64,000 bases of DNA from Bacteroidota bacterium (GCA_018816765.1 JAHIUX010000008.1:49964-113963), one strand, 5' to 3'; positions 151 to 10,825 are shown, counted from the first letter of the stretch. The notes: generated by a model not told the origin, from the letters alone. Numbers and translations: made by a program.

Positions 151-729
151 ATGTCTCCGAATAAACAGCTTACGGATCACGAAACAGAAAGATTGATTGA
201 AGCATGCAGGAAGCAGAGCCGCGAAGCACAATGCGCCCTTTACACCAAATACTGCAAGGCCATGTATAATGTTGCCCTGCGCATCTCGGGAAACAGGCAG
301 GAAGCAGAGGACGTAATGCAGGAAGCATTTATTACCGCTTTCGAAAAGCTTCATACCTATGATGGCAAAGCAAGTTTCGGCAGCTGGTTAAAGAAAATCG
401 TTCTGCATAAGGCCATCGATCAATCCAGGAAACACAAAAAAATGATCTTCGATGATGTGGATGAACTGAATGTTCAACTGGCTGATGAAGACAATGACCT
501 TCCGCCGTATTTTAACCTGACCATTGACGCAGTATACAGCATCTTGCAGTCGCTCAAGCCCCAGTATCGCATCATTCTGAACCTGCGTCTCATAGAAGAG
601 TGCTCCTATGAAGACATTGCAAAATTGCTCGACCTTCAATACGGTGCAGTAAGAACACGCTATGCCAGGGCACGCAGTATATTGGCCGGCAAGATTTATC
701 AGGAAGCACAATCTAGCATGTTGAATTAA
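151..729 (+). CDS. ECF (group 4, sigma-70 family) RNA polymerase sigma factor
   Basis: 192 aa. Region-2-like segment (EAEDVMQEAFITAFEKL...FGSWLKKIVLHKAIDQSRK) and region-4 HTH (YEDIAKLLDLQYGAVRTRYARAR). Size typical of ECF sigmas. Confidence 0.9.
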   Translation: MSPNKQLTDHETERLIEACRKQSREAQCALYTKYCKAMYNVALRISGNRQEAEDVMQEAFITAFEKLHTYDGKASFGSWLKKIVLHKAIDQSRKHKKMIFDDVDELNVQLADEDNDLPPYFNLTIDAVYSILQSLKPQYRIILNLRLIEECSYEDIAKLLDLQYGAVRTRYARARSILAGKIYQEAQSSMLN

Positions 730-747
730 CTGGAAACTAAAACAACA

Positions 748-1296
748 ATGAATAAAATAGACGATTTATTCCGGCAGAACAACGCGCTTTTTGAGGGTGA
801 AGACCTGGAAGATGGTCACCTCGAAAGGTTTCTAGCCCGCCTGGATCAACGAAAACCAATAGCCAGGAAGAAGTCATTTTTCTTGCAACACCTCACAAAA
901 CTATCCATTGCAGCAGTATTGGTGATCGGGCTGGGTGTTTTGGGAATCCTGATAAAAAATAAACAATCGAACGTACAATCAACAGATCAGCTACACACCG
1001 AAGCGATTCAGAAGGCAGACCAATACTACACTGAAATTGCCAACGGCAAAATTGCAGAAATCGAAGCCATGGCACAACATTCTCCTTCGCGAGAAACCAT
1101 TGTAAACGAAGCAATTGCTCAGGTAAATGTGCTCTCTGCCATCAGCAAGCGGCTTATTGGCGAATATTTGCGGCTTAAAGGCGACGACCGGGTGTTCAGC
1201 GCCATCATGAGTAATTATATGCAAATGATTTCGGGACTTGATCTTGTTAAAGAACAAATTGAAACACACAGTAATATCACAACAATAAATCCATAA
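748..1296 (+). CDS. putative anti-sigma factor / single-pass membrane protein
   Basis: Starts 19 nt after the sigma gene. Short cytoplasmic N-terminus, one hydrophobic helix (LSIAAVLVIGLGVLGILI), extracytoplasmic C-terminus. No HxxxCxxC zinc motif, so the call rests on position and topology. Confidence 0.5.
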   Translation: MNKIDDLFRQNNALFEGEDLEDGHLERFLARLDQRKPIARKKSFFLQHLTKLSIAAVLVIGLGVLGILIKNKQSNVQSTDQLHTEAIQKADQYYTEIANGKIAEIEAMAQHSPSRETIVNEAIAQVNVLSAISKRLIGEYLRLKGDDRVFSAIMSNYMQMISGLDLVKEQIETHSNITTINP

Positions 1297-1300
1297 GACA

Positions 1301-2335
1301 ATGAAAAACAGATTAATGACTATTGTGTTAAGCCTGGTTATGTTGACGGCTTTCGGCCAGGCATCAGACGATTTCTCACAAACCATCCGGAAGGAATTCA
1401 ATACAACAGCAGAGACCACATTGGAGATTACCAATCAGTTTGGCAAGGTAAAATGCGAAAACTGGAACAAACCCATGGTTGGTGTAGTGGTAACCATTAC
1501 AGCGAAAACGGATAACAAGCAGAAAGCAGATAAAATACTGGCGGCCATCAGTGTTCAGATGGAACAAAAAAACAATGCCATCGCACTAGTTACCAAAATC
1601 GGTGATATGCCAAGTCGGAACAAGGGAGATAACTTCAACATTGATTTTGTGGTAAATTTGCCTGAAACAATGGCGCTGAGCATCGAGAATGAATTTGGCG
1701 ATGTGGTATGCGACCGCCGCAAGGGCGATTTTGAACTTGAACTTTCTTACGGTGCTTATCAGTTGCAGGCACTTGATGGCCAGCGCAACAAGCTCGAAAT
1801 TTCGTTTTCGAAGGGTGTCATCAATTCAGCATCAAACGCTGACATCACCTTAAGTTATTCAGGCTTGCAAATGGAAAGTGTCGGCACGGTCAAACTTCAT
1901 TCTGAATTTTCTGAACTTAGCCTGACCCAGTGTAACGCGCTTGACTTACAGTCGGCTTACGACAAGCTGAATTTCGAAAAAATTGGATCTTTCAAAGGTG
2001 AAACGGCCTTTTCAACGGTGAAACTTGGCGAGATTACGGCCGACCTGACAGCGGAGTTTGAATATGGTGCTGTCAGCATCAGAAAGTTGGCGTCCACACT
2101 TGGTTTCTTTGACGCAAGGTTCGAATTTTCTTCTCTAAAGATCGAAGATGTTGGCGCGATCAGGTTTAAAACCCTCGCGGTGGATATCGAGCATGGCAAC
2201 TTCAATTATCCGTCGGGGCTGAATGTGAAGGTCGAAAAGCAGGGTTATACTGAGGTTAAATACCGTGCTGAAGACGCAGCCGGAACAGCTAAATTTAAAG
2301 TGACAGCAACAAACAGCAATATTTCAATGCGATGA
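1301..2335 (+). CDS. secreted beta-strand-repeat protein (DUF4097 / putative-adhesin-like)
   Basis: Signal peptide MKNRLMTIVLSLVMLTAFGQ, then repetitive short-strand segments (ELSYGAYQL, LSYSGLQME, FEYGAVSI, IEHGNFNY) typical of DUF4097-type beta-helix proteins. Starts 5 nt after the previous gene. Confidence 0.55.
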   Translation: MKNRLMTIVLSLVMLTAFGQASDDFSQTIRKEFNTTAETTLEITNQFGKVKCENWNKPMVGVVVTITAKTDNKQKADKILAAISVQMEQKNNAIALVTKIGDMPSRNKGDNFNIDFVVNLPETMALSIENEFGDVVCDRRKGDFELELSYGAYQLQALDGQRNKLEISFSKGVINSASNADITLSYSGLQMESVGTVKLHSEFSELSLTQCNALDLQSAYDKLNFEKIGSFKGETAFSTVKLGEITADLTAEFEYGAVSIRKLASTLGFFDARFEFSSLKIEDVGAIRFKTLAVDIEHGNFNYPSGLNVKVEKQGYTEVKYRAEDAAGTAKFKVTATNSNISMR

Positions 2336-2454
2336 GTTAAAGAATTGAGTACCTTTAACATCGATAAGCAGCTGTGAGGAATGCCTCAGCAGCCGAAAAT
2401 CTTCATCAACACAAAATTTTAATCAATATTCAATTAATTAATACCATTCTTATC

Positions 2455-3189
2455 ATGAAAAAGACGATTCAAAAAAGCACCTTTGCCCTGATAGTTATGC
2501 TCCTATCCATGATGCATTTAGCAGGTGCCTGTGTGCTCAATCCATTTGCTATCAGTGGCAATGGGAAGATGGTGACCGAACAGAGGCAGGTAAGCAATTT
2601 TACAGCCCTGGAAGTCAGCAGTGCCTTCAGCGTTGAACTTAGCCAGGGAGATGCCGAAAGCCTGACCATCGAAGCTGATGAAAACCTGATGAAGTACATC
2701 CGTACTGAAGTCAGGGGAGGCGTACTGAAAATTTATGTTGACGAACCCGTCAACTCTTCCAGGGGACTCAAGGCCATACTGAATTTCAAATCGGTGGAGT
2801 CGATGGATTTCAGTGGTGCGGTTAAGGTAAAAGGCATGAACAGCTTGCATTTTGACCAATTGGAAGTTGAATTGAGTGGCGCAACCGAGTTAGATATGGA
2901 TATGACAGCCGCATCCCTTGATCTGGACGTTTCAGGTGCCAGTAAAATATCGCTGGTGGGTGAAGTTAAGCATGTTGATGCAGATTGCTCTGGTGCCTCA
3001 AAAATCTATGCTGAAAACCTGAAAACCAGCACTTTCAATTTTGAATCAAGTGGTGCTTCGAAGGCTGAGATCTGGGTGACCGATGAATTGCGCGTGTCGG
3101 CAAGCGGCGCATCCTCAGTCAGATACAAGGGCGAGGTCCAAAAAATCAAGGTTGACACTTCCGGAGCCAGTTCGGTCGAGAAGATGTAA
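2455..3189 (+). CDS. lipoprotein with DUF2807 / GIN-domain-like beta-helix repeats
   Basis: Internal ATG at 2455 gives MKKTIQKSTFALIVMLLSMMHLAGAC (lipobox-like). Five repeats of an SGAS(K/S) motif about 20 aa apart (SGATELDM, SGASKISL, SGASKIYA, SGASKAEI, SGASSVRY, SGASSVEK). Confidence 0.6.
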   Translation: MKKTIQKSTFALIVMLLSMMHLAGACVLNPFAISGNGKMVTEQRQVSNFTALEVSSAFSVELSQGDAESLTIEADENLMKYIRTEVRGGVLKIYVDEPVNSSRGLKAILNFKSVESMDFSGAVKVKGMNSLHFDQLEVELSGATELDMDMTAASLDLDVSGASKISLVGEVKHVDADCSGASKIYAENLKTSTFNFESSGASKAEIWVTDELRVSASGASSVRYKGEVQKIKVDTSGASSVEKM

Positions 3190-4119: not shown

Positions 4120-4357
4120 AGCTAATTAATTTTCGTGGGCTTTGCCGCAAATTGTTGTTATCCACCATTATTTTTTAAAATGTTATTATTCAAGTACATA
4201 CAAACGGAATGCGGTTAATATTAAATTAATAATTTTTTTTGAATTTCATGGTTTCAGGTACTGGTTTTATTTATTATTGCATACCATATTGTATGGCATG
4301 AAAGATGTTGTAACAAGCATGTCTGCAAGCTATTAATACTGTAACCAATCTTCACTG

Positions 4358-5623
4358 ATGATTATTATGCTCCAAAATCAGATTTCGGATCAGGTTCCGG
4401 ATCTGAATGAAGAAGAAGAACCTCCGAGCCCCTCCGGCTTACAAACTGGAAAACAAACCCCTTTGCACGCCAATGGACAAGGTGTGACACAGCCGATTGC
4501 CGCCTCAGGCGTTTCGCTGGCTTTCATGAAAAAGCATTTTCCTGAAGCCACCCTGGCCGATTGGTCGAGTTGGCGCTGGCAACTGCGCAACAGCTACACC
4601 AGCCTGCAGTCGCTTCACAAGGTCATTGACCCTGCCGATGATGAACTGAAACCTGTTGATGGGGTGAACGATATGCTGCCAATCCGCATCACACCTTATT
4701 ACGCAAGCCTGTTGGCGGCATCAACGCCCGGACATCCTATCCGCAAAACAGTTGTGCCCACGGTGCATGAGCTAAACCTCAACGCTGGCGAAGTTTCTGA
4801 CCCGCTAGGCGAAGAGGATGACAGCCCTGTGCCAAACCTGGTGCATCGCTATCCCGACAGGGCCTTGTTTCTGTCGACGGGATTTTGTGCAGCCTACTGC
4901 CGTTACTGCACGCGCTCGCATATGGTGGCCAAGGACAAATGCCATATTGGTAAAAAAGCATGGGAACCAGCACTGGAATACCTTTCGCGGCACAGCGAAA
5001 TTCGCGACGTAATTGTTTCCGGAGGCGATCCGCTGAGTATGCCCGACAGCCATATCGACTATTTGCTTTCGCGCCTGAGGGCCATTCCACATATCGAAAT
5101 CATTCGGATTGGTACAAAAGTGCCCGTGGTTATGCCAATGCGTATCACACCGGCCCTTGTATCCATCCTGAAGAAATACCACCCGCTGTTCATGAGCCTT
5201 CACTTCACCCATCCGCTTGAGCTCACAGCAGAGACTTCTGCTGCCTGCGAGCGTCTTGCCAATGCAGGTGTTCCGCTGGGAAGCCAGACCGTCTTGCTCC
5301 GCGATGTAAATGACGATCCGGTGGTGATGAAAAACCTGTTTACAGGATTGCTGAAAATCAGGGTCAGGCCTTATTACCTGTACCAGTGTGATCCCATTCC
5401 GGGCTCATCACATTTCCGGACACCGGTTGCAAAAGGACTCGAGATGATCAAGGCCTTGCGTGGTTTTACCTCAGGTTATGCCATTCCTCAGTATGTGATT
5501 GATGCTCCCGGCGGCGGAGGTAAAATTCCATTGCTGCCTGATTATGCTCAGGGCTATGACAACAGTAATTTGTTGTTGAAGAATTATGAGGGAAAAATCT
5601 ACAAATACCCTGACGTAATCTGA
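4358..5623 (+). CDS. kamA: lysine 2,3-aminomutase (KamA-family radical SAM / PLP enzyme)
   Basis: CAAYCRYC (CxxxCxxC radical SAM cluster), VSGGDPL, YLYQCDPIPGSSHFRTP, VIDAPGGGGKIP. The two Asp residues (QCD and VID) are 37 residues apart, as for the lysine-binding Asp pair I recall in clostridial LAM. About 50 aa of low-complexity N-terminal extension. An alternative ATG lies at 4367. Confidence 0.85.
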   Translation: MIIMLQNQISDQVPDLNEEEEPPSPSGLQTGKQTPLHANGQGVTQPIAASGVSLAFMKKHFPEATLADWSSWRWQLRNSYTSLQSLHKVIDPADDELKPVDGVNDMLPIRITPYYASLLAASTPGHPIRKTVVPTVHELNLNAGEVSDPLGEEDDSPVPNLVHRYPDRALFLSTGFCAAYCRYCTRSHMVAKDKCHIGKKAWEPALEYLSRHSEIRDVIVSGGDPLSMPDSHIDYLLSRLRAIPHIEIIRIGTKVPVVMPMRITPALVSILKKYHPLFMSLHFTHPLELTAETSAACERLANAGVPLGSQTVLLRDVNDDPVVMKNLFTGLLKIRVRPYYLYQCDPIPGSSHFRTPVAKGLEMIKALRGFTSGYAIPQYVIDAPGGGGKIPLLPDYAQGYDNSNLLLKNYEGKIYKYPDVI

Positions 5624-5624
5624 T

Positions 5625-6623
5625 ATGGCAGCTGAAACGATTAAGAAATCACTCAGGATTGGCCTTACCTATGACCTCAGGGAGGCTTATCTGGCCATGG
5701 GATACTCTGAAGATGAGACGGCCGAACTCGACAAAGAAGAAACAGTATTGGGTATTGAAAAAGCCCTGACAGAACTTGGTCACCAAACCCAGCGTATCGG
5801 AAACCTGTTTCAACTGCAACAAAAGTTGCTTAGCGGTGAACGTTGGGATCTGGTGTTCAACATCTGCGAAGGCATGCACGGCATTGGACGGGAAGCCCAG
5901 GTTCCTGCCTTGCTCGATGCTTACCGCATTCCCTACACTTTTTCTGATCCGCTGGTGCTGTCGCTGACCTTGCATAAAGGAATGACGAAACGCGTGGTTC
6001 GTGATGCCGGAATACCCACCGCTGATTTTGCCATCGTTCAGTCCTCAGAGGATATTGATCATGTGAGCATTCCTTTTCCTTTGTTTGTGAAGCCCAATGG
6101 AGAAGGCTCAGGAAAAGGCATAGATGGCCGATCAAAAGTGAAAGACGCGACGCAACTGAAAGAGGTATGCCTGCGGCTGCTGAACGAGTATAAACAGGCC
6201 GTCCTCATCGAAGCCTATCTGCCTGGAAGAGAGTTTACTGTTGGAATCACAGGCACAGGAAATGAGGCTGTGTGCATGGGCGTGATGGAGGTGTGCATTG
6301 ATGAGCAGGCTGAAGAAAATGCCTATTCACGATTTATCAAAGAAAACTACGAGGGCAGGGTGACCTACCAAATGGCCGAAGAAAAGGTTGCACAGGAATG
6401 TGCCTCAGTGAGTCTGGCTGCCTGGCGAGTGCTGGGTTGTCGCGATGCCGGCCGTGTCGATGTGCGCTACAACAGCAAAGGGCAGGCTTGTTTTATTGAG
6501 GTGAATCCATTGGCAGGGATGAATTACATCCATTCTGACCTGCCAATTCTGATGTATAAAAACAATTTTGTGTTCAATGACCTGATCGGGTCAATTATCC
6601 AATCTGCCAGCAAAAGAATCTGA
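5625..6623 (+). CDS. ATP-grasp ligase, D-alanine--D-alanine ligase family (paralog 1)
   Basis: 332 aa. Ddl-like N-domain (VFNICEGMHGIGREAQVPALLDAYRIPYT). ATP-grasp motifs LFVKPNGEGSGKGI, LIEAYLPGREFTVGI, GRVDVRY...CFIEVNPLAGM. The ATG is 1 nt after the kamA stop. Confidence 0.75.
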   Translation: MAAETIKKSLRIGLTYDLREAYLAMGYSEDETAELDKEETVLGIEKALTELGHQTQRIGNLFQLQQKLLSGERWDLVFNICEGMHGIGREAQVPALLDAYRIPYTFSDPLVLSLTLHKGMTKRVVRDAGIPTADFAIVQSSEDIDHVSIPFPLFVKPNGEGSGKGIDGRSKVKDATQLKEVCLRLLNEYKQAVLIEAYLPGREFTVGITGTGNEAVCMGVMEVCIDEQAEENAYSRFIKENYEGRVTYQMAEEKVAQECASVSLAAWRVLGCRDAGRVDVRYNSKGQACFIEVNPLAGMNYIHSDLPILMYKNNFVFNDLIGSIIQSASKRI

Positions 6624-6624
6624 T

Positions 6625-7602
6625 ATGCAGTCACTTCGTGTTGTTATCTTACATAATCAGTTAAGCAAGGAGGCCCTGGCCGATGAGGCAGATGTAATGG
6701 AACAGGTAATGCTTGTTGAATCCTGTCTGAAACAGCTTGGGCACACTAGTTTTGTCCTGCCGCTTTCGCTTAACCTCGAAAAAGGAAAAGAGGCGTTGCT
6801 TGAACTGAAACCCGATCTGGTGTTTAACCTTGTCGAATCCTTTGAAAATAAGGGTGAGCTGGTGTACATTGCCCCAGCCCTGCTCGATGCACTTAAGATT
6901 CCTTACACCGGTACAGCCACGGTGCCAATGTTTCAGTCGGCGAGTAAAACACTCACCAAGGAGAACCTTTCCAAAGCCGGTATTGTTGTAGCCGAAGGAC
7001 TTGAGCTTGACCAGCTCGACCAATGCAAGCCCGAAAAAACGTACATCCTGAAACCAAGGTGGGAGGAAGGTTCGCTGGGCCTTGACGAGGATGCTGTTTT
7101 CAAAGGCGATAATATGGCATTTGTCAGCAGGGTCAAAGGGCTCAGTCACAAAGATTATTTTGTTGAAGAGTTTATCGAAGGGCGTGAATTTAACTGTGCA
7201 ATCGTAGCCACTCGCGAAGGTCCAAGGATTGTCGCTGTTGCAGAAATCACCTTCATCGATTTCCCGGAAGAAAAGCCTAAGATGCTGGGATATAAGGCAA
7301 AATGGGACGAAGAATCCTTCGAGTACAAAAACACGGTGCGTCGGCTCGATTTTGATGAAGAGGATAAAGACCTCATTCAGCTATTGGGCGCCATTGGGCT
7401 GAAATGCTGGACAGCCTGTGGCTTAGGTGGCTATGCACGTGTCGACTTCAGGGTCGATCAGCATAACCAGCCCTATGTGCTCGAAGTGAACTCAAACCCC
7501 TGCATCTCGCCCGATAGCGGATACTATGCTGCTGTAGAACATGCCGGCATGCAGTTTACCGATATAGTAAAGCTGATTGTTGAAGATGCCCTGAAGCATT
7601 AA
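6625..7602 (+). CDS. ATP-grasp ligase, D-alanine--D-alanine ligase family (paralog 2, divergent)
   Basis: 325 aa. YILKPRWEEGSLGLD, FVEEFIEGREFNCAIV, GYARVDFRVD...YVLEVNSNPCISP. The ATG is 1 nt after the previous stop, with the same AATCTGATATG junction as at 5615-5627. Confidence 0.7.
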   Translation: MQSLRVVILHNQLSKEALADEADVMEQVMLVESCLKQLGHTSFVLPLSLNLEKGKEALLELKPDLVFNLVESFENKGELVYIAPALLDALKIPYTGTATVPMFQSASKTLTKENLSKAGIVVAEGLELDQLDQCKPEKTYILKPRWEEGSLGLDEDAVFKGDNMAFVSRVKGLSHKDYFVEEFIEGREFNCAIVATREGPRIVAVAEITFIDFPEEKPKMLGYKAKWDEESFEYKNTVRRLDFDEEDKDLIQLLGAIGLKCWTACGLGGYARVDFRVDQHNQPYVLEVNSNPCISPDSGYYAAVEHAGMQFTDIVKLIVEDALKH

Positions 7603-7634
7603 GCGCCTGACTATTAACATTTTCATTGATCATT

Positions 7635-8129
7635 ATGGAAACCATAAGCTACCGTTCATATATAATTGATTCCGACCCTGATACCATTGAACGCATTGTA
7701 AGGTCGAGTGGGTTTTTTTACGAAGACGAAATTCCGATAGCGCGTGAGCTGGCTGAGGAAACATTGAAATTCGGCGAAAAATCGGGTTACCGCTTTATAT
7801 TTGCTGACCTGGGCAACACCACCATCGGCTATGCGGCTTACGGATTCATTGATGGCACCGACGGTAGCTATGACCTGTATTGGATCGCCGTTGACGAAAG
7901 TGCCAGAGGAAAGAAAATAGGCAAGGGAATTTTACGGGAAGTTGTTTCAGAACTCATAAAAGTCAAGGCCAGGCAACTGATCGCAGAAACTTCTTCATTG
8001 CCCAAATATGAACCCACCAGGGCTTTTTACCTCAACAACGGATTTGTGCAGCAGGCTGTTTTACCCGACTTTTTCAGGATGGGTGACGATAAGGTGTTTT
8101 TTGTGCTGCGTGTTGATCAAACGATCTGA
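7635..8129 (+). CDS. GNAT-family N-acetyltransferase
   Basis: About 164 aa from the first ATG (the track ORF begins at a TTG at 7626). Acetyl-CoA-binding-type segment WIAVDESARGKKIGKGILREV and C-terminal YLNNGF typical of GNAT folds. Confidence 0.75.
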   Translation: METISYRSYIIDSDPDTIERIVRSSGFFYEDEIPIARELAEETLKFGEKSGYRFIFADLGNTTIGYAAYGFIDGTDGSYDLYWIAVDESARGKKIGKGILREVVSELIKVKARQLIAETSSLPKYEPTRAFYLNNGFVQQAVLPDFFRMGDDKVFFVLRVDQTI

Positions 8130-8157: not shown

Positions 8158-8838
8158 CTAGGAGTTAGTGCCATAATTTCTTTCGCCAAAAATGAGGCTG
8201 CCGATACGAACCATGGTCGAACCTTCTTCAATGGCAATTGGGTAATCGCCCGACATGCCCATCGAAATTTCGCAAAAAGCCTCATCATCCTTGAAAAACC
8301 TGCTTTTCAATTCCCTGAAATATGTCCTCAACTGACTAAACTCCTTGCGCAATTGGTTTACGTCATCCGTGTATGTAGCCATCCCCATTACGCCGCAGAT
8401 GCGGATGTTTTTCATGGCTTTGAAGGATTCAGAAAGCAGCATATCAACGGCTTCTGACAGGTCGAGGCCAAATTTTGTTTCTTCTTCGGCTATGTGAAAC
8501 TGCAACAGACAATCGATGCGTTTGTCGATTTTTGCAGCCTGCTTGTTGATCTCTGTTAAAAGCCTGAAACTATCAACCGATTCGATCACATTGACCACTT
8601 GAACCAGGGCTTTCACTTTGTTTGTCTGCAAATGACCGATAAAATGCCACGCGACATCTGCTGGCATTTCGGCCTGTTTGGCGATGAGCTCCTGAACCTT
8701 GTTTTCGCCAAACCGGCGCTGTCCCGCCTGGTAAGCAAGGTTCAATGCACTGACAGGCATTGTCTTTGAAACAGCAATGAGTTTTACGCCTGATGGGATT
8801 TCCTGATTGATTTTGCGAATATGGTCAGCAATCATCAT
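8158..8838 (-). CDS. yggS: YggS-family pyridoxal-phosphate homeostasis protein
   Basis: 226 aa. KLIAVSKT (PLP lysine), FGENKVQE, WHFIGHLQTNK, EISMGMSGDY, RIGSLIFG: the classic YggS/PROSC pattern. Confidence 0.85.
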   Translation of the reverse strand: MMIADHIRKINQEIPSGVKLIAVSKTMPVSALNLAYQAGQRRFGENKVQELIAKQAEMPADVAWHFIGHLQTNKVKALVQVVNVIESVDSFRLLTEINKQAAKIDKRIDCLLQFHIAEEETKFGLDLSEAVDMLLSESFKAMKNIRICGVMGMATYTDDVNQLRKEFSQLRTYFRELKSRFFKDDEAFCEISMGMSGDYPIAIEEGSTMVRIGSLIFGERNYGTNS

Positions 8839-8940
8839 GGTAGGTTTTTAATTTTTTTGTGGTGATGAATGGACCACAAAGTTAGCTTAATTAGCCGAAG
8901 TTGTGGCATATTTAGGGGATTGGCGGGTGAAGAATAATGC

Positions 8941-8948
8941 TATTTTTG
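8941..8948 (+). promoter_or_regulatory. Bacteroidota -7 promoter box (TATTTTTG)
   Basis: Exact TAnnTTTG match 18 nt upstream of the ATG at 8966. Confidence 0.4.
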
Positions 8949-8965
8949 CGCATTATTCTGATCAC

Positions 8966-10825
8966 ATGAAACTTGTATTATACGGGCTATTAAAGCGGTT
9001 ACTGTTCTGGATGCTGTTTTTTGCCCTCCTCCGGATGGTCTTTCTGGCATACTACCAGCAACAGATCATGCTCGAGAATATTGTTTTTCCTGATGTACTG
9101 GCCGTGTTCTGGCATGCCCTTCCACTTGATTTTTCAACAGCCTGTTACATTTTGTTGTTTTCTTATGTAATGTTGATGTTCAGACAACTGAATAACAACC
9201 GGCTCTATATCAGCATCGATAATTTTGTTGCTTTTGTGGTTATGCTTGTGTATGCGTTGATTTCGGTGGCCGAATTGGGATTGTATGGCGAGTGGAACAC
9301 AAAAATGTCGTTCAAGGCACTAAGCTATCTGAGCCATCCCGATGAGGTGTTTAATTCCATTTCAACGTTTTCGTTTGTTTTATTATTTGCCTTTTGGTTG
9401 ATGCAAACCATCATACCCTATATTTTCTATTCAAGGATGGCTGTAATTGAACCCAAATCGCGGCGCAAACGCTCCCCTTCGGCATGGTGGACATTGTTGT
9501 TTGTTCCCCTGATTCTGGTTCTTGGTACCAGGGGAGGTTTGGGTGAAATCCCGATCAGCACCAGTTCTGCTTATTTCAGTCAGCACCAGATTTTAAACCT
9601 CGCAGCGGTGAATTCAGGTAATAACATGATTGTAAGCACATTGAACTCAAGCGAGTTTGGCGATACCAATCCGTTTATCTCCATGCCAGAGGCCGAAGCG
9701 GATAGTATTGTACGACAAATGCACAAGGTTGAAGGTGACAGTACCTTGCGTATTTTGAAAATAAATAAACCAAATATTGTTGTATTGCTGCTCGAAAGCT
9801 GGTCGGGCGACCTGATCGAATCATTAGGAGGTGAAACTGGAATCACGCCTAATTTCCGGGAGTTGGAGAAGGATGGCCTCTTATTTACTTCATTTTATGC
9901 CAGCGGAAATCGCTCACAACAGGCCATGGGTTCATTGTTTGGGGGGTTACCGGGTTTGCCCATTACTACCATCACTGCCCACCCCGAAAAATATGCGGCA
10001 TTGCCAAGTTTCATTAAGGACATTAAGAAGGAAGGCTATCACACCGGGTTTTGGTTTGGGGGCCAGTTGATCTATGGGAATATCTTAAGTTACCTGATGG
10101 CCAATGAGTTTGATGAAATCATCGAAGGCAAGGATTTACCCGGAAATTTTGAACGGGGAAAGCTGGGGGTTCATGACGAGTTTATGTTGCAATACGTGGC
10201 CAAGTCGCTGGGAGAGCGGCCCGAGCCATTTTTTGCCACCATCTTTACCCTGAGTTCGCACTCGCCTTACGATTTTCCAATGCCTTCAACCATTCAATGG
10301 CCACAAAAGGAAAAGCCATTTGTGAATTCGGCTCATTATACGGATAAATCGCTGGGCGACTTTTTTGCCATTGCCCGACAGCAATCCTGGTATGACAGCA
10401 CCTTGTTTGTTATTGTGGCCGATCACAGCCACAACACCTATAAGAACCATCCGCTGGCATCTTTCGAATACCATAAGATTCCCCTTTTGCTATGCGGACC
10501 TGCACTCGCCGACAGCCTGAAAGGGAGCACCTACGACATGATAGCAGGAAATACTGACATCCCTGCCACGATACTGGCGCAACTGGGCATGGATCATAAG
10601 GCCTACACCTGGAGCAAGGATCTTTTCAATGCGAATTACAGCCCTTTTGCATTCTTTGAACTGAATGAGGGTTTTGGTTATATGCGGCCTGATGGATTTG
10701 TTGTTTGGGATCACATGACGGATCGGTTTATTCAAAAAAGCACCAGTCCAGAAAATGAAGCACTTTTACTGCGTGAAGGGCAGGCCTATGAACAGGTATT
10801 GTTCGGTGATTTCCTGAAATATTAA
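8966..10825 (+). CDS. LTA-synthase / sulfatase-family membrane protein (phosphoglycerol- or phosphoethanolamine-transferase-like)
   Basis: N-terminal multi-TM region followed by a sulfatase-type domain (VVLLLESWSGD, FYASGNRSQQA, TLSSHSPYD, VIVADHSHN). Start moved to the ATG at 8966 (MKLVLYG...), just downstream of the -7 box. Confidence 0.75.
   Translation: MKLVLYGLLKRLLFWMLFFALLRMVFLAYYQQQIMLENIVFPDVLAVFWHALPLDFSTACYILLFSYVMLMFRQLNNNRLYISIDNFVAFVVMLVYALISVAELGLYGEWNTKMSFKALSYLSHPDEVFNSISTFSFVLLFAFWLMQTIIPYIFYSRMAVIEPKSRRKRSPSAWWTLLFVPLILVLGTRGGLGEIPISTSSAYFSQHQILNLAAVNSGNNMIVSTLNSSEFGDTNPFISMPEAEADSIVRQMHKVEGDSTLRILKINKPNIVVLLLESWSGDLIESLGGETGITPNFRELEKDGLLFTSFYASGNRSQQAMGSLFGGLPGLPITTITAHPEKYAALPSFIKDIKKEGYHTGFWFGGQLIYGNILSYLMANEFDEIIEGKDLPGNFERGKLGVHDEFMLQYVAKSLGERPEPFFATIFTLSSHSPYDFPMPSTIQWPQKEKPFVNSAHYTDKSLGDFFAIARQQSWYDSTLFVIVADHSHNTYKNHPLASFEYHKIPLLLCGPALADSLKGSTYDMIAGNTDIPATILAQLGMDHKAYTWSKDLFNANYSPFAFFELNEGFGYMRPDGFVVWDHMTDRFIQKSTSPENEALLLREGQAYEQVLFGDFLKY

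Follow-up and report, generated by a model that had tools for sequence, protein, structure and literature searches.

Beta-lysine is known as a fermentation intermediate, a modifier of elongation factor P (EF-P), an osmolyte precursor and a building block of antibiotics. In AblA/AblB, which produces N-epsilon-acetyl-beta-lysine in methanogens and some bacteria, an aminomutase of the lysine 2,3-aminomutase (LAM) type shares an operon with a GNAT acetyltransferase. A second described system, the synthesis of N-acetylglutaminylglutamine amide (NAGGN), also yields a small cytoplasmic peptide by N-acetylation and ATP-grasp peptide-bond formation; it reportedly relies on Ngg, a bifunctional GNAT and ATP-grasp protein, together with AsnO. 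Here we analyse a four-gene cassette at positions 4358-8129 of a 64,000-nucleotide stretch of DNA from a Bacteroidota metagenome-assembled genome (MAG; GCA_018816765.1 JAHIUX010000008.1:49964-113963), hereafter the window. The cassette encodes a KamA-family aminomutase, two ATP-grasp ligases of the D-alanine--D-alanine ligase (Ddl) fold, here called grasp1 and grasp2, and a GNAT. Its enzyme families and its precursor are known; the way in which the pathway combines them we found described nowhere, and the cassette resembles both AblAB and NAGGN synthesis whilst belonging to neither. Our reading, to which we assign a probability of roughly 0.55, is that an N-acetylated beta-lysine peptide or amide is made for cytoplasmic use.

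The cassette departs from AblA/AblB in having two ATP-grasps between the aminomutase and the GNAT, and these are found fused to both. AblA is the top-ranked hidden Markov model (HMM) for KamA, but KamA stays below the AblA cut-off, carries an extra N-terminal tail and has no LAM C-terminal segment. The cassette GNAT, of 164 aa, shows no similarity to the AblB model. A NAGGN-like logic had been suggested by the first-pass annotation, which was made from the window's sequence alone, and the resemblance is real: grasp2 and the GNAT form one polypeptide in a Planctomycetota locus (L011). Unlike NAGGN synthesis, the cassette has two ligases and a beta-amino acid made by a radical SAM enzyme, and no AsnO-type amidotransferase (no asparagine-synthetase-like gene is conserved nearby in the 80 loci described below). 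To our knowledge, the ligase domain of Ngg is not Ddl-like, unlike the cassette ligases.

The first-pass annotation had allowed beta-lysine only three fates (fermentation, EF-P modification and acetylation to an osmolyte). That list was too short, as beta-lysine is also built into antibiotics such as streptothricin, viomycin and capreomycin. In streptothricin, amide-linked beta-lysine units are joined by adenylation enzymes of the nonribosomal peptide synthetase type encoded in an actinomycete antibiotic cluster, and GNAT resistance acetyltransferases acetylate a beta-lysine amino group. Amide-joined beta-lysine units and GNAT acetylation are thus the likeness to our proposal. The cassette is instead a compact and highly conserved unit carried by anaerobes from many phyla, and neither an exporter nor other natural-product genes accompany it. 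Its four genes are as follows.

4358..5623, + strand: kamA-type lysine 2,3-aminomutase, open reading frame (ORF) of 421 aa
5625..6623, + strand: grasp1, Ddl-fold ATP-grasp ligase, ORF of 332 aa
6625..7602, + strand: grasp2, second Ddl-fold ATP-grasp ligase, ORF of 325 aa
7635..8129, + strand: GNAT acetyltransferase, ORF of 164 aa when started at the ATG (in-frame TTG at 7626)

A compact cassette conserved across phyla

The four genes are packed on the same strand with intergenic gaps of 1, 1 and 32 nt, and public gene calls start the GNAT at ATG 7635, giving 164 aa. This arrangement of kamA, two Ddl-like ATP-grasps and a GNAT, as proposed at first pass, was borne out by the ORFs and by Pfam and NCBIfam searches, which found Radical_SAM and LAM_C domains, two Dala_Dala_lig_C ATP-grasps and one GNAT. 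Identical loci are present in three public assemblies, on contigs of 41-173 kb.

To compare loci, a back-translated scan was run with the grasp1 alignment against one genome per species. Relatives were confirmed in at least 536 stretches, which puts the number of species with a grasp1 relative at no fewer than 536, and the best 80 of these loci were compared. They come from Bacteroidota, Desulfobacterota/Syntrophia, Acidobacteriota, Planctomycetota, Ignavibacteriales, Spirochaetota, Bacillota and one Fusobacteriota MAG. The carriers span at least eight phyla, across which the operon keeps 55-60% identity; they are mostly anaerobic, and many are uncultured organisms from sediments, groundwater and digesters. 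In tblastn searches with the four window proteins, kamA lay directly upstream of grasp1 in 66 of the 74 loci with enough flank, and grasp2 lay directly downstream in 62 of 68. The GNAT gene was adjacent in 49 of 58 loci and stood farther along the locus in 6 more. Median identity to the window proteins was 59% for KamA, 57% for grasp1, 43% for grasp2 and 42.5% for the GNAT. Gene order is therefore conserved, as anticipated, with the same arrangement in nearly all of the 80 loci and in several phyla.

When the neighbouring ORFs of these loci were clustered, no further family occurred in more than 10 of them. No transporter, signal peptide or other gene was conserved across phyla in the 80 loci. 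The conserved unit is therefore the four genes alone. Smaller versions exist: two Bacillota loci (L019 and L080) hold kamA and grasp1 only, and L015 and L079 hold grasp1 alone. The distribution of carriers appears patchy rather than clade-wide, an impression gained from MAG record titles and not a measured frequency. A plasmid collection searched with grasp1 contained no relative.

Fusions between neighbouring cassette proteins

When 1.84 billion representative proteins were searched exhaustively for grasp1 with HMMER, 613 matched at E<=1e-30; between these matches and the compared loci, every neighbouring pair of cassette proteins is found fused. The KamA~grasp1 fusion P0261 has 746 aa and carries Radical_SAM, LAM_C and Dala_Dala_lig_C domains; a follow-up search found about 40 fusion clusters of this kind, of 640-880 aa. 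In Syntrophobacteraceae bacterium DRH4, the genes for grasp2 and the GNAT come immediately after that of an 819-aa KamA~grasp1 protein. Proteins of 560-790 aa with two ATP-grasp stretches made up about 35 of the top 150 representatives. Three of these grasp1~grasp2 proteins were checked and each has two Ddl-type domains, with the second half of P0241 clearly grasp2-like. The grasp2~GNAT fusion is a single protein of 525 aa, found in Planctomycetota L011 only (4313-5890), with grasp1 after it. One of the cassette-pair fusions is located as follows.

L084, 7001-9460: fusion protein P0397

The GNAT is also joined to a deacetylase. In L066 (5182-7449) and L076 (8158-10470), proteins of 755-770 aa have the cassette GNAT as their C-terminus and hold in addition an N-terminal GNAT-like domain and a PF00850 domain (254.8 bits) of the histone-deacetylase/acetylpolyamine-amidohydrolase family. 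In L014, L049 and L051 the GNAT-like-deacetylase protein is encoded by a separate gene adjoining the cassette.

Taken together, the fusions KamA~grasp1, grasp1~grasp2 and grasp2~GNAT show that the four proteins belong to one pathway, in line with the earlier proposal that the four genes act together. The KamA~grasp1 fusions and the Bacillota loci with kamA and grasp1 only further indicate that grasp1 is the first consumer of the KamA product.

KamA as a predicted lysine-type 2,3-aminomutase

All four motifs of the KamA signature noted at first pass (CAAYCRYC, SGGDPL, YQCD...HFR and VIDAPGGGGK) are present in the translation. The single sequence relative of KamA in the PDB is the LAM of C. subterminale (2A5H), which is 49% identical and aligns without gaps over 359 aa. 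In this alignment D345 and D382 of KamA fall on Asp293 and Asp330, confirming that the two Asp residues stand exactly 37 residues apart. The three cluster cysteines (CxxxCxxC) and the equivalents of Arg134 and Lys337 are also retained. Every one of the 61 full-length cassette KamAs taken from other loci (61 of 61) keeps the three cysteines, Arg134, Asp293, Asp330 and Lys337 in these columns. In LAM, Lys337 binds pyridoxal phosphate (PLP), Arg134 the alpha-carboxylate and CxxxCxxC the [4Fe-4S] cluster. The Asp293/Asp330 pair binds the epsilon-ammonium group of lysine and is replaced in glutamate 2,3-aminomutase.

Among the NCBIfam models, KamA passes only that of the KamA-family subfamily, TIGR00238 (344 bits; cut-off 199). 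The top-ranked equivalog is the AblA-type TIGR03820, followed at lower scores by glutamate 2,3-aminomutase, arginine 2,3-aminomutase (358 bits; cut-off 600) and EpmB. Identity as a glutamate 2,3-aminomutase was rejected on the score (413 bits against a cut-off of 650) and on the presence of both lysine-binding Asp residues. EpmB identity was likewise rejected, at 242 bits against 369, and neither efp nor epmA is among the conserved neighbours of the 80 loci. We conclude that KamA is a predicted lysine-type 2,3-aminomutase of a separate clade, as assigned by HMM scores and active-site residues. This agrees with the first-pass view of gene 1 as lysine-type and as neither EpmB nor a glutamate aminomutase. 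Its likely product is beta-lysine.

KamA differs from the clostridial enzyme at its C-terminus. The alignment stops at residue 367 of the 416-residue 2A5H and KamA ends two residues later (window 5560-5623), leaving it without the last ~47 residues of clostridial LAM, the C-terminal multimerisation segment. This segment has been called a multimerisation domain, and YjeK/EpmB is also without it (Bailly and de Crecy-Lagard 2010, PMC2821294). YjeK is reported to be 33% identical to LAM (PMC2821294), and KamA, at 49%, is therefore much closer to LAM. The cassette resembles EpmB/EpmA in pairing a LAM paralogue that has no C-terminal multimerisation domain with a proposed ATP-dependent ligation of beta-lysine. 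Its ligase is however an ATP-grasp and not a LysRS paralogue, KamA is nearer to LAM, and there is no link to efp.

Two Ddl-fold ligases with altered specificity positions

The two ligases are paralogues with ~26% identity. Against Dala_Dala_lig_C of Pfam, grasp1 scored 93.6 bits and grasp2 67.2 bits, and grasp2 also gave a weak TTL-family match. The PDB sequence matches of both were all Ddl or Van enzymes, at E values of 1e-21 to 1e-6. Grasp1, the better conserved of the two ligases and the direct partner of KamA, has an AlphaFold model with a pLDDT (predicted local distance difference test) of 90.3. The best Foldseek matches of this model were DdlB and DdlA (template-modelling (TM) score 0.72-0.77; 20-26% identity), and this search returned Ddl enzymes only, giving no hint of the substrate. 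The likeness to Ddl/Van enzymes thus lies in the fold and the catalytic residues, so that the acyl-phosphate mechanism is presumably the same.

Residues were compared in MAFFT alignments of 41 sequences per family, the window protein among them, with E. coli DdlB; the DdlB reference is backed by the PDB alignment over residues 74-303. Equivalents of DdlB K97, K144, E180, E187, K215, R255, D257, E270 and N272, the residues for ATP, Mg and acyl-phosphate, are invariant in both ligase families. The following positions are changed.

DdlB Y216: E, A or D in grasp1 (usually E240), invariant W in grasp2
DdlB L282: invariant D305 in grasp1, invariant G in grasp2
DdlB S150: T or S in grasp1, G or A in grasp2

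In addition, DdlB G276 is replaced by C in grasp2. The N-terminal GGxSxE of Ddl is replaced by IGLTYDLR...AEFD in grasp1 and by ILHNQLS...DEADV in grasp2; a Glu in the ligases aligns with DdlB Glu15, in an N-terminal region where the alignment is uncertain at 20-26% identity. With catalytic residues kept and specificity positions changed, grasp1 and grasp2 look like active ligases with non-Ddl substrates.

The ATP-grasps had been suspected not to be canonical Ddl enzymes, and their scores against the best NCBIfam Ddl model agree, at 148.6 bits for grasp1 and 105.6 bits for grasp2 against a cut-off of 243. Canonical Ddl identity was rejected for both on these low family scores, on the changed S150, Y216 and L282 and on the replaced GGxSxE. 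The genomic setting also differs from that of Ddl: the ligases stand in a kamA context, with no mur or fts genes near the cassette. No other Ddl homologue is present inside the 64 kb window.

The KamA tail and the GNAT

KamA begins with an N-terminal extension of ~60 aa (window 4358-4540), which is variable and of low complexity apart from one short motif of the form acidic-E-P-P-[S/G].

4409..4435, + strand: conserved short motif, NEEEEPPSP (KamA aa 18-26)

The pattern [ED]PP[SG] was found in 50 of the 61 cassette KamAs, from many phyla, where 0.3 would be expected from neighbouring proteins. Most cassette KamAs without the exact pattern carry near-variants. The motif is absent from both Bacillota loci with kamA and grasp1 only, from the Ilyobacter locus L073 and from L049. 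It stands a median of 52 residues ahead of the LAM core, and residues 1-43 of the AlphaFold model of KamA have a pLDDT of ~30. The low values mark EPP[S/G] as a predicted linear motif within a disordered KamA tail. It could let partner enzymes dock, make translation pause at an EF-P-sensitive diproline, or act as an acidic tail resembling an acceptor.

The GNAT matches Acetyltransf_7 and Acetyltransf_1 of Pfam. Against the NCBIfam equivalogs, including AblB (TIGR03827), there was no match even at E<=10. It is a full-length orthologue of PDB 2R7H (130 bits), a structural-genomics GNAT named 'putative D-alanine N-acetyltransferase'. The label is itself putative, and the name probably derives from the neighbouring Ddl-like genes.

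A proposed pathway and its alternatives

We propose that KamA would turn L-lysine into beta-lysine, the well-supported step of the scheme. Next, grasp1 may take beta-lysine straight from KamA and form an amide bond via an acyl-phosphate. The partner could be a second beta-lysine, with another amino acid or an amine equally open. Two things make a second beta-lysine attractive: Ddl, from which grasp1 descends, couples a pair of identical amino acids, and invariant acidic residues of grasp1 fall at positions that form the second-substrate site of Ddl. One more unit would be added by grasp2, after which the GNAT would N-acetylate a free amino group with acetyl-CoA. Such a product would be a small N-acetylated peptide or amide that contains beta-lysine and is kept in the cell, perhaps as a compatible solute or a polyamine-like cation. 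The scheme partly bears out the first-pass proposal of a candidate N-acetylated di- or tripeptide, or short oligomer, containing beta-lysine. The cassette has no export functions, which points to an intracellular product. Acetylation could neutralise charge, as in N-epsilon-acetyl-beta-lysine or NAGGN. The deacetylase that is fused or adjacent in some lineages may remove the acetyl group again, making acetylation a protecting step or a regulatory switch.

Several observations weigh against this scheme. KamA is below the AblA cut-off (455.9 bits against 525.4) and has no equivalent of the ~47 C-terminal residues of LAM, so its substrate or stereochemistry could differ. In five loci kamA is truncated or absent whilst grasp1, grasp2 and the GNAT are kept. 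Of these, L014 (3755-4213) and L029 (5438-5770) have N-terminal kamA remnants upstream of grasp1, with DDEEPPS and the NWxW start of the core and no radical SAM domain; in L030, L039 and L042 kamA is missing to a distance of 6 kb. Such loci imply either that beta-lysine comes from elsewhere in the genome or that the ligases use another substrate. Which second and third substrates are used, where the bonds form and which nitrogen is acetylated are guesses in our scheme. A singly acetylated homo-oligomer of beta-lysine would stay cationic and fits poorly with a classical neutral osmolyte. The source environments, judged from record titles, include fresh water as well as marine sites and give no specific pointer to salt.

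Polyamine acetylation is set by SpeG-type acetyltransferases and acetylpolyamine amidohydrolases, and glutathionylspermidine synthetase joins glutathione to spermidine. In a sub-variant of our model the ligases would, like the latter enzyme, join beta-lysine to a polyamine or diamine, with the GNAT and the deacetylase setting its acetylation. The PF00850 domains fused or adjacent to the cassette GNAT (L014, L049, L051, L066 and L076) fit this idea, and the invariant D305 and usual E240 at the second-substrate positions of grasp1 would suit a cationic nucleophile. The same acidic residues would however be just as well suited to beta-lysine or lysine with its second amino group, and the N-terminal Ddl alignment is uncertain at 20-26% identity. 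No gene for making polyamines was a conserved neighbour of the cassette in the 80 loci. We regard a polyamine conjugate as unlikely. More distant from our model is a role on a protein or other macromolecule, to which the ligases would attach beta-lysine and then a further unit, like EpmA/EpmB on EF-P or like RimK, LysX and TTL, ATP-grasps that modify tails. KamA, with its acidic EPP[S/G] tail, could then offer a docking site or even the acceptor. For many of the carrier phyla no system that modifies EF-P is known, which counts in favour of such a role. So do the conserved acidic diproline motif in the disordered tail, the weak TTL-family match of grasp2, the use of beta-lysine as EF-P modifier in gammaproteobacteria (PMC2821294) and the missing LAM C-terminal domain that KamA shares with YjeK/EpmB. 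Against it, KamA is closer to LAM than YjeK is (49% against 33% identity) and falls short of the EpmB model (242 bits against 369), and the 80 loci show no conserved efp, epmA or candidate acceptor gene close to the cassette. Moreover, Syntrophus is reported to have a separate yjeK adjoining efp, the Ddl fold belongs to a family working on small molecules, and the distribution appears patchy, as judged from MAG record titles. Modification of a macromolecule is on balance very unlikely.

A more conventional account would leave the cassette with ordinary AblAB or Ddl functions: the ligases would have no tie to the adjoining genes or would make the D-Ala-D-Ala of the cell wall, and the GNAT would acetylate D-alanine. 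Sources do annotate a lysine 2,3-aminomutase and a D-alanine--D-alanine ligase here, the PDB name of 2R7H points to a putative D-alanine N-acetyltransferase, and KamA with the GNAT would make an AblAB pair. This account is hardly credible given that the GNAT has no match to AblB (TIGR03827) even at E<=10, that both ligases are far under every Ddl cut-off with specificity residues changed, and that mur/fts genes are not nearby. In nearly all loci, too, the ligases are flanked by kamA on one side and the GNAT on the other, and fusions with each are found.

Junctions, neighbours and upstream regions

The two 1-nt gaps of the window cassette share one sequence.

5617..5627, + strand: junction 1, AATCTGATATG, with the kamA stop TGA, a single base and the grasp1 ATG
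6617..6627, + strand: junction 2, AATCTGATATG, with the grasp1 stop TGA, a single base and the grasp2 ATG

Within the 64 kb window the 11-mer AATCTGATATG occurs only at these two junctions, against 0.02 expected. The first-pass annotation had read the identical junctions as a sign of translational coupling; their identity holds and fits coupling, but the feature is confined to the window genome. Homologous loci have short gaps of varying length and do not retain the 11-mer. It is therefore a local trait of the window genome, consistent with translational coupling, and not a trait of the family. A sigma-70/terminator scan, which is uninformative for a Bacteroidota promoter, found no terminator-like site on the + strand inside the cassette. 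An Rfam search of the whole window found no riboswitch and no other RNA family.

One gene lies immediately downstream on the opposite strand.

8158-8838, - strand: yggS (YggS-family PLP-binding protein), convergent to the cassette with a 28-nt gap

Its position was correctly given at first pass, but the adjacency is not conserved: elsewhere it was seen only in the same species and in one close relative (L004). A functional link between the cassette and yggS was rejected for this reason, and their proximity is probably a coincidence.

Upstream of the cassette, window 151-3189 holds an ECF-type (extracytoplasmic function) sigma factor gene, two ORFs without a family match and a gene for a DUF2807 protein. 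Downstream, window 8903-10825 encodes a 640-aa membrane protein of the sulfatase/LTA-synthase family. These ECF sigma, DUF2807 and sulfatase-family neighbours are not conserved beside the cassette in other phyla. DUF3108 and sulfatase-family neighbours were rejected as cassette parts because they are lineage-specific, occurring in the same species or closest relative only.

Other lineages have neighbours of their own. A gene for a sigma-54 enhancer-binding protein and one or two ORFs of 82-98 aa without a family match come ahead of the cassette in several Desulfobacterota loci. A -24/-12 promoter-like element of the GGCAC-N5-TGC type stands upstream of the small ORF or of the cassette in L012, L061, L068, L072 and L084. 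The sigma-54-associated upstream regions are listed below.

L084, 4314-6781: sigma-54-associated upstream region
L012, 1018-2700: sigma-54-associated upstream region
L068, 2515-2909: sigma-54-associated upstream region
L061 and L072: sigma-54-associated region upstream of the small ORF

In five Rikenellaceae/Tenuifilaceae/Bacteroidales loci (L029, at 8640-9140, L031, L039, L042 and L044), the next gene downstream of the GNAT encodes an Lrp/AsnC-family regulator.

Novelty and meaning

In their sources, cassette proteins are named only 'KamA family radical SAM protein', 'lysine 2,3-aminomutase', 'ATP-grasp domain-containing protein' or 'D-alanine--D-alanine ligase', and no NCBIfam equivalog covers any of them. 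No description of the cassette was found in the searchable literature, and the sole paper combining '3-aminomutase' and 'ATP-grasp' was an unrelated review; an earlier mention in a computational study is possible. A transposon-library paper on D. alaskensis G20 had nothing on the cassette genes, and a review of compatible solutes listed no beta-lysine peptide among them.

Beyond the single locus, we tentatively propose, at a little under even odds, that the cassette represents a widespread new fate of beta-lysine. ATP-grasp-built, N-acetylated peptides or amides would serve as a cytoplasmic solute or polyamine surrogate in many anaerobic phyla, made by enzymes channelled via the EPP[S/G] tail. 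With four small genes and one predicted precursor, the hypothesis is directly testable. If true, it would add a new branch to beta-amino-acid metabolism, in which beta-lysine is fed into two dedicated ATP-grasp ligases, and would provide new ligases for beta-amino acids. It would also give a function to two large families that at present go under the names 'D-alanine--D-alanine ligase' or 'ATP-grasp domain-containing protein', and to the GNAT 2R7H.

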